NCBI RefSeq assembly: GCF_056746865.1 | Contig: NZ_CM163382.1 | Strand: one strand, 5' to 3' | Length of the DNA: 64,000 nt | Shown here: one piece after another, positions 46,761 through 47,114 of the stretch | Layout of the letters: every line of letters starts with the position of its first letter | Numbering within the stretch: the first letter of the stretch is position 1 | The notes under the pieces: generated by a model | What the model saw: the letters and a program-made list of their open reading frames with translations, nothing else | What the model was told of the DNA's origin: nothing | Databases searched by the model: none | Made by a program: the position numbers and the translations under genes

Positions 46761-47114
46761 ATTGTTCAGTCTCTTATTATCTTTATATGCTTGATATACT
46801 TAAGGTTGTAATAAGCAAAAGAGGACTGAACTGTAAAATATAGGCGTTATACTTTACAGCAACAGTACGCCGCTAACGCAATTGCTACCTCTGGCATAAC
46901 AAGTATATCGGGTAAGGGTTTCTGTTCCGCACACGCAGGCGCAGAGTATCGTTAAGATGTCCATATTGTTGTTTTAGGCCCGCTAGTAATGCGCTACGGG
47001 TATTTAATATTGTTAAACCCTGATAATCGCTCCGGTTATTTCCGGGATAAATGTACTACCGCAGTTACTATCATAGCCCCGACAATAAAACTTGCCGGGG
47101 CTTTTTTGACGCTA

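Follow-up and report, generated by a model that had tools for sequence, protein, structure and literature searches.

Stem-loops near the 3' ends of transcripts have been described in several bacterial settings. An intrinsic (Rho-independent) terminator is recognised by a GC-rich stem-loop of roughly 5-12 bp with a short loop, a U-rich tract 3' of the stem and an RNA 3' end mapped at that tract. Another example is the malE-malF REP stabiliser, an intercistronic stem-loop which blocks 3'-to-5' exonucleases and stabilises the upstream mRNA segment. Rho-terminated transcripts are also said, in 2018 work by Dar and Sorek, to be trimmed back to a hairpin, and Ju, Li and Liu reportedly described in 2019 bidirectional terminators between convergent transcripts, for which an A-tract 5' of the stem, a U-tract 3' of it and RNA 3' ends on both strands would be expected. 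The hairpin considered here lies between the genes for malate synthase G and the glycolate/lactate permease of Escherichia coli, and the reading that is favoured (probability about 0.55) is that it defines or protects the glcDEFGB 3' end, through partial termination or as an exonuclease barrier, while probably carrying a latent capacity to terminate antisense transcription.

Both flanking genes belong to glcDEFGBA, which is given as one operon (PMC10272880) and whose gene order in K-12 is glcD-E-F-G-B-A according to the RefSeq annotation. In the window, meaning the whole stretch of DNA that was analysed (64,000 nucleotides), the locus is made up as follows.

47115-49286, minus strand: glcB (malate synthase G), from the open reading frame and the RefSeq annotation under 100%-identical matches
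46761-47114: glcB-glcA intercistronic spacer, 354 bp
47102-47107, plus strand: T6 run directly 3' of the stem, equivalent to an A6 run directly 5' of the stem on the operon strand
47075-47102, both strands: GC-rich inverted repeat, from the sequence and folds
47068-47075, minus strand: published glc RNA 3' ends, from the Adams 2021 Term-seq and TRS lists
46839-47060, plus strand: Rfam RF00117, C0719 candidate sRNA (299 bits against a gathering score of 50, E = 3.6e-79)
45078-46760, minus strand: glcA (glycolate/lactate permease), from the open reading frame and from the annotation of 100% identical regions in many E. coli RefSeq genomes

Read along the operon strand, the hairpin follows the end of the glcB stop codon by 12 nt, and glcA, the last gene of the operon, lies 314 nt downstream of the hairpin. 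The plus strand of the spacer reads AGCCCCG-A-CAA[TAAAAC]TTG-C-CGGGGCT from 47075, followed by TTTTTT up to 47107; the earlier note had reported a hairpin with a T6 run at 47076-47107, within a 354-bp spacer flanked by two minus-strand genes, and those coordinates are exact. As plus-strand RNA the repeat forms 10 pairs around a 6-nt loop, with six G-C pairs at the base and one A.C mismatch, and folds at -15.2 kcal/mol (z = -3.8, equalled by 1 of 200 shuffles). Because this A.C mismatch is a G.U pair on the minus strand, the hairpin in the glc mRNA has 11 uninterrupted base pairs around its 6-nt loop and folds at -21.9 kcal/mol (z = -4.6, equalled by none of 200 shuffles). When the spacer was used as a blastn query with 11-nt words, E. 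coli genomes had a median of one matching place each and never more than two. A REP/BIME-type repeat was considered and ruled out, since the hairpin is single-copy in the genome.

Each strand was scored with our own d'Aubenton-Carafa-type discriminant using modern energy parameters, which gives an approximate value. By this measure the plus strand is terminator-like (d = +9.7, tail score 4.29); the minus strand has no U tail (d = -19, tail score 1.6). The operon-strand tail after the stem, written as UAUGAUAGU, UAUGAUAG or UAUGAUAGUAACUG in E. coli and as UAUUAUAGUUACUG in E. albertii, is not a U-tract, and canonical intrinsic termination is therefore not expected on the minus strand, even though an RNA 3' end does lie a few nt past the stem there. 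On the plus strand, where the 5' flank of the hairpin is CUAUCAUA, the GC-rich stem-loop and the U-rich tract 3' of the stem are both present, and by sequence rules the hairpin is a plausible intrinsic terminator. A simple terminator scan, which applies a contiguous-stem and loop rule, reported no terminator at the hairpin, because the A.C mismatch breaks that rule. Over both strands of the whole 64-kb window, a d of 9.7 or more is reached at three sites, while ten dinucleotide shuffles yielded 0-3 such sites, 0.7 on average; at the scale of the window, then, the motif by itself exceeds chance only modestly. The two other sites with a hairpin and a T-run that score as high or higher are at 37434-37480 on the plus strand and 30482-30510 on the minus strand (d = 12.9 and 23.9).

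Published RNA ends can be placed on the window by subtracting 3074519 from the K-12 coordinate. In a Term-seq study, a minus-strand 3' end at K-12 3121590, with an average read count of 47,630, is listed in the LB OD600 ~2.0 sheet under the classes 'primary' (with respect to glcB) and 'antisense' (with respect to C0719), with the context ...AAAAAAGCCCCGGCAAGTTTTATTGTCGGGGCTATGA up to the end and TAGTAACTGC beyond it (Adams 2021, PMC7815308, Supplementary file 1). This is window position 47071, 4 nt past the last paired base on the operon strand, so that the RNA ends ...GUCGGGGCUAUGA. A minus-strand terminus at 3121587-3121594, with peaks at 3121587 and 3121588, also appears in two sheets of Supplementary Data 2 of the TRS paper, which is a re-analysis of other published RNAtag-seq and Term-seq datasets, and one of the sheets labels it 'Alternative primary in TU, glcB' (PMC10687069). 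Thus it has been shown that glc RNA 3' ends accumulate 4-7 nt past the base of the hairpin and that a glcDEFGB species ends there, and the hairpin with its 3' end is an ordinary mRNA-end element, already catalogued as the primary end of glcB. The earlier note had offered an RNA-stability element for the operon mRNA as one possible role, and these ends support that proposal directly. No glcA-associated 3' end is found among the Term-seq entries or the TRS termini listed, despite expression of the operon, which is evident from the presence of internal glcD ends in the Term-seq files (Adams 2021, PMC7815308).

On the plus strand, no end is listed at K-12 31216xx, where the T-run lies, in the Term-seq lists for three conditions, which are thresholded and thus provide weak negative evidence (Adams 2021, PMC7815308); likewise no 31216xx position is among the TRS termini listed, a result of limited weight (PMC10687069). 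The earlier note had taken the hairpin for an intrinsic terminator that could end a short RNA, antisense or sRNA, transcribed from within the spacer, and had accepted that this would fall if no plus-strand transcript ends here. The terminator anatomy stands, with its positive discriminant and a candidate transcript, C0719, ending 15 nt away; the end itself is missing from the Term-seq and TRS entries listed, which comes close to the outcome that the note had named, to the extent that thresholded lists can tell. Its description of the element as antisense to the operon misses the effect demonstrated on the operon strand.

C0719 (RF00117) is the sole family found on either strand between 46000 and 48000 in the Rfam scan, and the hairpin begins 15 nt past its annotated 3' end, outside the Rfam model, which contains no terminator. 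Elsewhere in the window, the JUMPstart cis-regulatory family (RF01707) is matched at 27566-27604 on the minus strand with 54 bits against a gathering score of 35, which is unrelated to the hairpin. C0719 is absent from the current K-12 RefSeq record NC_000913.3, and none of the 40 RefSeq records listed has an annotated feature in the spacer. Upregulation of C0719 in transition phase has been described by RNA-seq, in a text that carries no statement of strand specificity (PMC4676190), and what was measured could be RNA of the glc operon, whose level goes up in the same phase. Overexpression of C0719 gave no biofilm, motility or fimbriae phenotype (PMC4606813). In other literature, a transposon insertion at the C0719 site reduced group II intron retrohoming, and some lineages of E. 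coli and Shigella no longer carry C0719; the papers covered here assign it no function.

A sigma-70 scan returned no sigma-70-like promoter on either strand of the spacer, and the SMRT-Cappable-seq and Cappable-seq supplements have no entries for a plus-strand start site or transcript at the locus. Three overlapping weak sigma-70-like matches (9/12) occur at 46485-46533 on the plus strand, inside glcA and antisense to it; their count is within chance expectation, and plus-strand transcription has no other promoter-like site from which it could reach the hairpin. Two small plus-strand open reading frames, 46989-47138 and 47051-47218, cross the hairpin and overlap the end of glcB in antisense, and neither has support.

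The spacer is present as a single copy in 4543 of 5426 complete E. coli genomes and is missing from about 880 of the 5426, with a patchy-looking distribution. Among the matches listed, the closest relative of GlcB outside the species is that of E. albertii (96% amino acid identity), followed by Pseudomonas and Burkholderiales proteins at no more than 67%, with none from other Enterobacteriaceae among those matches. The Pseudomonas and Burkholderiales GlcB loci have no comparable spacer, and the comparison was for this reason limited to E. coli and E. albertii. In E. albertii the 28-nt hairpin differs at three positions, its T-run is T5 and its structure is kept. The substitutions turn one operon-strand C-G pair into U.G and the G.U pair of E. 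coli into G-C, and they abolish the loop-closing A-U pair, giving a fold of -19.1 kcal/mol; on the plus strand there is an internal C.A mismatch and the fold is -15.2 kcal/mol. In both species a minus-strand G.U pair thus corresponds to a plus-strand A.C mismatch, at a different pair in each, and the operon-strand hairpin folds at -19 to -22 kcal/mol compared with about -15 kcal/mol on the plus strand. The T-run is T5 in E. albertii and T6 or T7 among E. coli strains, whose hairpins also differ by a change in the loop. In strain 779 the stem is perfect on either strand owing to a C-to-T change, which converts the plus-strand A.C to A-U at -20.3 kcal/mol.

When pairs were counted over the five distinct sequences, E. 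albertii included, 98.2% of the cells were paired on the minus strand as opposed to 92% on the plus strand. This asymmetry is no more than suggestive, as it comes from two or three substitutions, with one change favouring the plus strand. Covariation was not significant on either strand for these five distinct sequences, most shuffles reaching the observed values. In strain PEC408, glcA has been lost together with the spacer to within 5 nt of the stem, through an IS5-family element and a deletion. The end of this element, ISKpn26, abuts CTATCATAG at that distance from the hairpin (L086, 2855-3047), and Zorya type II genes are found nearby. In strain 2013C-3277 (L087, 2767-3239), the spacer is truncated near window position 46877, beside a traT fragment and cptA.

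Constraint on the spacer extends beyond the hairpin. Between E. coli and E. albertii the spacer is 95.2% identical, compared with 72% and 66% at the fourfold-degenerate sites of glcB and glcA, and a 100-nt block at 46787-46886 reaches 99% identity, against 81-97% per 100 nt in the flanking coding DNA. A spacer that is more conserved than the coding DNA around it implies strong constraint at the nucleotide level. The fold of the whole spacer also favours the operon strand (z = -3.1 on the minus strand versus -1.7 on the plus strand). A second near-perfect palindrome, CTGTAAAATATA-GGCGT-TATACTTTACAG, is found at 46831-46859 and folds at -12.7 kcal/mol on the minus strand (z = -4.9) and -7.2 kcal/mol on the plus strand (z = -2.0), where again a minus-strand G.U pair is a plus-strand A.C mismatch. 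The annotated 5' end of C0719, 46839, falls inside the left arm of this palindrome, which suggests that the boundaries of C0719 are array-derived and not true transcript ends. A long-range helix between 46764-46775 and 46819-46831 is predicted on the minus strand, in a 126-nt region with z = -3.05 as against -1.19 for the plus strand. Its stem takes in AAGAGACUGAAC, which immediately precedes the glcA AUG (46760); in this model the helix could sequester the ribosome-binding region of glcA. The minus strand also holds a cysteine-rich open reading frame of 36 amino acids (MDILTILCACVCGTETLTRYTCYARGSNCVSGVLLL) at 46854-46964, in which both E. albertii differences are synonymous third-position changes, while three E. 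coli polymorphisms (46939, 46928 and 46895) are non-synonymous and no Shine-Dalgarno sequence is present; it is probably not a gene.

These observations can be brought together in a mechanism for the preferred reading, in which the hairpin sets the 3' end of glcDEFGB. As the glcDEFGB(A) RNA is made, an 11-bp, GC-based hairpin with a folding energy near -20 kcal/mol would form in it 12 nt beyond the stop codon of glcB. Leaky termination or trimming is proposed for what follows because the minus-strand tail is not U-rich, and we infer two routes. In one, termination at the non-U tail would be inefficient and non-canonical, with some polymerases reading through into glcA; a leaky terminator would suit a gene order in which glcA has to be reached by read-through. 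In the other, transcription would end or the RNA would be cleaved further downstream in the untranslated 354-nt spacer, through Rho acting there or through endonucleolytic cleavage, and 3'-to-5' exonucleases would then trim the RNA until they stall at the hairpin; between 46900 and 47019, C mildly exceeds G in the operon-strand RNA. By either route the level of glcB, the enzyme, would be uncoupled from that of glcA, the permease. On the plus strand, the hairpin with its T5-7 run probably has a latent terminator capacity, judged from its anatomy, and would stop transcription leaving the spacer, whether from C0719 or from antisense starts inside glcA, before it becomes antisense to glcB.

Several lines of evidence favour this operon-strand reading besides the mapped ends. 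The minus-strand hairpin is 4-6 kcal/mol more stable than its plus-strand counterpart in both species; the folding z scores of the other spacer structure favour the same strand; and in PEC408, which lacks glcA and most of the spacer, the hairpin is still joined to glcB. A stable stem-loop (-19 to -22 kcal/mol) is thus found at the 3' boundary of an accumulating transcript, as is expected of a hairpin that blocks exonucleases. Against it stands the lack of a U-tract after the minus-strand stem. Any stable hairpin incidentally blocks exonucleases, and therefore the mapped 3' end documents an effect and not a selected function; selection for termination on the plus strand would bring with it an incidental protection of minus-strand 3' ends. 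The T5-T7 run, which is kept in all sequences seen and is needless for protecting a minus-strand 3' end, hints at selection on the plus strand.

Another possibility is that the hairpin is a bidirectional terminator between convergent transcripts, glcB-proximal on the minus strand and C0719 or another antisense RNA on the plus strand, with both directions used in vivo and selected. The element sits exactly between the glcB stop (47115, minus strand) and the annotated end of C0719 (47060, plus strand), the plus strand has its positive discriminant and the minus strand its mapped 3' end, the T5-7 run is retained in E. albertii as well, and C0719 has been described as rising in transition phase (PMC4676190). 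However, the flanks are asymmetric, the minus-strand tail UAUGAUAG not being a U-tract, and RNA 3' ends are documented on the minus strand only, with none on the plus strand among the Term-seq entries for three conditions or the TRS entries listed. The plus strand of the spacer also has no sigma-70-like promoter, C0719 is no longer in the NC_000913.3 annotation, and its transition-phase signal could be glc operon RNA, so that this explanation, while a serious competitor, is considered distinctly less likely than the operon-strand reading. If the plus strand is instead given the primary role, the hairpin would be the intrinsic terminator of C0719 or an antisense RNA, and the minus-strand 3' ends an incidental by-product of a stable hairpin. 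The canonical anatomy, which is found on the plus strand only, fits this, as does the position 15 nt past a C0719 match that has no terminator of its own, which would give a transcript from 46839 to about 47108 of roughly 270 nt, and the strain 779 change repairs the A.C mismatch. Yet this explanation shares the missing plus-strand end among the Term-seq and TRS entries listed, and C0719, dropped from the current annotation, has no promoter-like site, an annotated 5' end inside the arm of another hairpin and no overexpression phenotype in biofilm, motility or fimbriae (PMC4606813). The plus-strand stem moreover has an internal mismatch in both species, whereas the minus-strand version is fully paired or loses only its loop-closing pair, and a primary plus-strand role is accordingly improbable.

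The structured spacer allows a broader reading, in which it would be a cis-acting operon-strand RNA whose first hairpin sets the glcDEFGB 3' end and whose palindrome at 46831-46859 and helix at 46764-46775/46819-46831 gate translation of glcA, with C0719 as a strand-misassigned array signal. The conservation and z scores described above are consistent with this, and we regard it as speculative, with perhaps one chance in a handful of being right. At the other extreme, the hairpin could be a palindrome that happens to adjoin a T-run and is functionless on both strands. About 0.7 such sites are expected per shuffled 64-kb window over both strands, and covariation is not significant; but the expectation falls to about 0.004 for a site 12 nt past a stop codon inside a 354-bp spacer, three substitutions in the 28 nt of the E. 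albertii repeat have left its structure intact, and an abundant RNA 3' end is found at the hairpin base in independent datasets. This explanation is disfavoured and very improbable: position, conserved structure and mapped 3' end together confirm that the hairpin is real.

With the preferred operon-strand reading, glcDEFGBA appears to yield a discrete glcB-terminated RNA, which may explain differing levels of glcB and glcA. The significance of the hairpin itself is slight beyond annotation. For C0719, it provides a plausible terminator that the Rfam model omits and at which the Term-seq and TRS entries listed show no plus-strand end. The spacer is a sensible, if small, object for work on how glcA is regulated in cis.

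Compared with the systems described at the outset, the hairpin is like an intrinsic terminator in that a GC-rich stem-loop is followed by T5-7 on the plus strand, with a positive discriminant and a position just past C0719; it is unlike one in that the sole mapped 3' end is on the opposite strand, which has no U-tract, and that the plus-strand stem has an A.C mismatch. Like bidirectional terminators, a single hairpin lies between the 3' ends of convergent glcB (minus strand) and C0719 (plus strand), as opposed to which only one flank is U-rich, 3' ends have been documented for a single strand and C0719, the partner on the plus strand, is of doubtful status as a gene. With respect to C0719 (RF00117) itself, the locus has the same spacer, the same plus strand and a perfect match to the model at 46839-47060, and the hairpin occupies the natural position for a terminator, whereas the hairpin is outside the model and the structure signals of the spacer favour the opposite strand. 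The likeness to exonuclease-barrier stem-loops lies in a stable hairpin, lacking a U-tract and placed between the genes for an enzyme and a downstream permease of one operon, with 3' ends a few nt past the stem. The glc hairpin differs from the malE-malF REP stabiliser in being single-copy and not of the REP/BIME type, and stabilisation of the upstream mRNA is here a proposal only.
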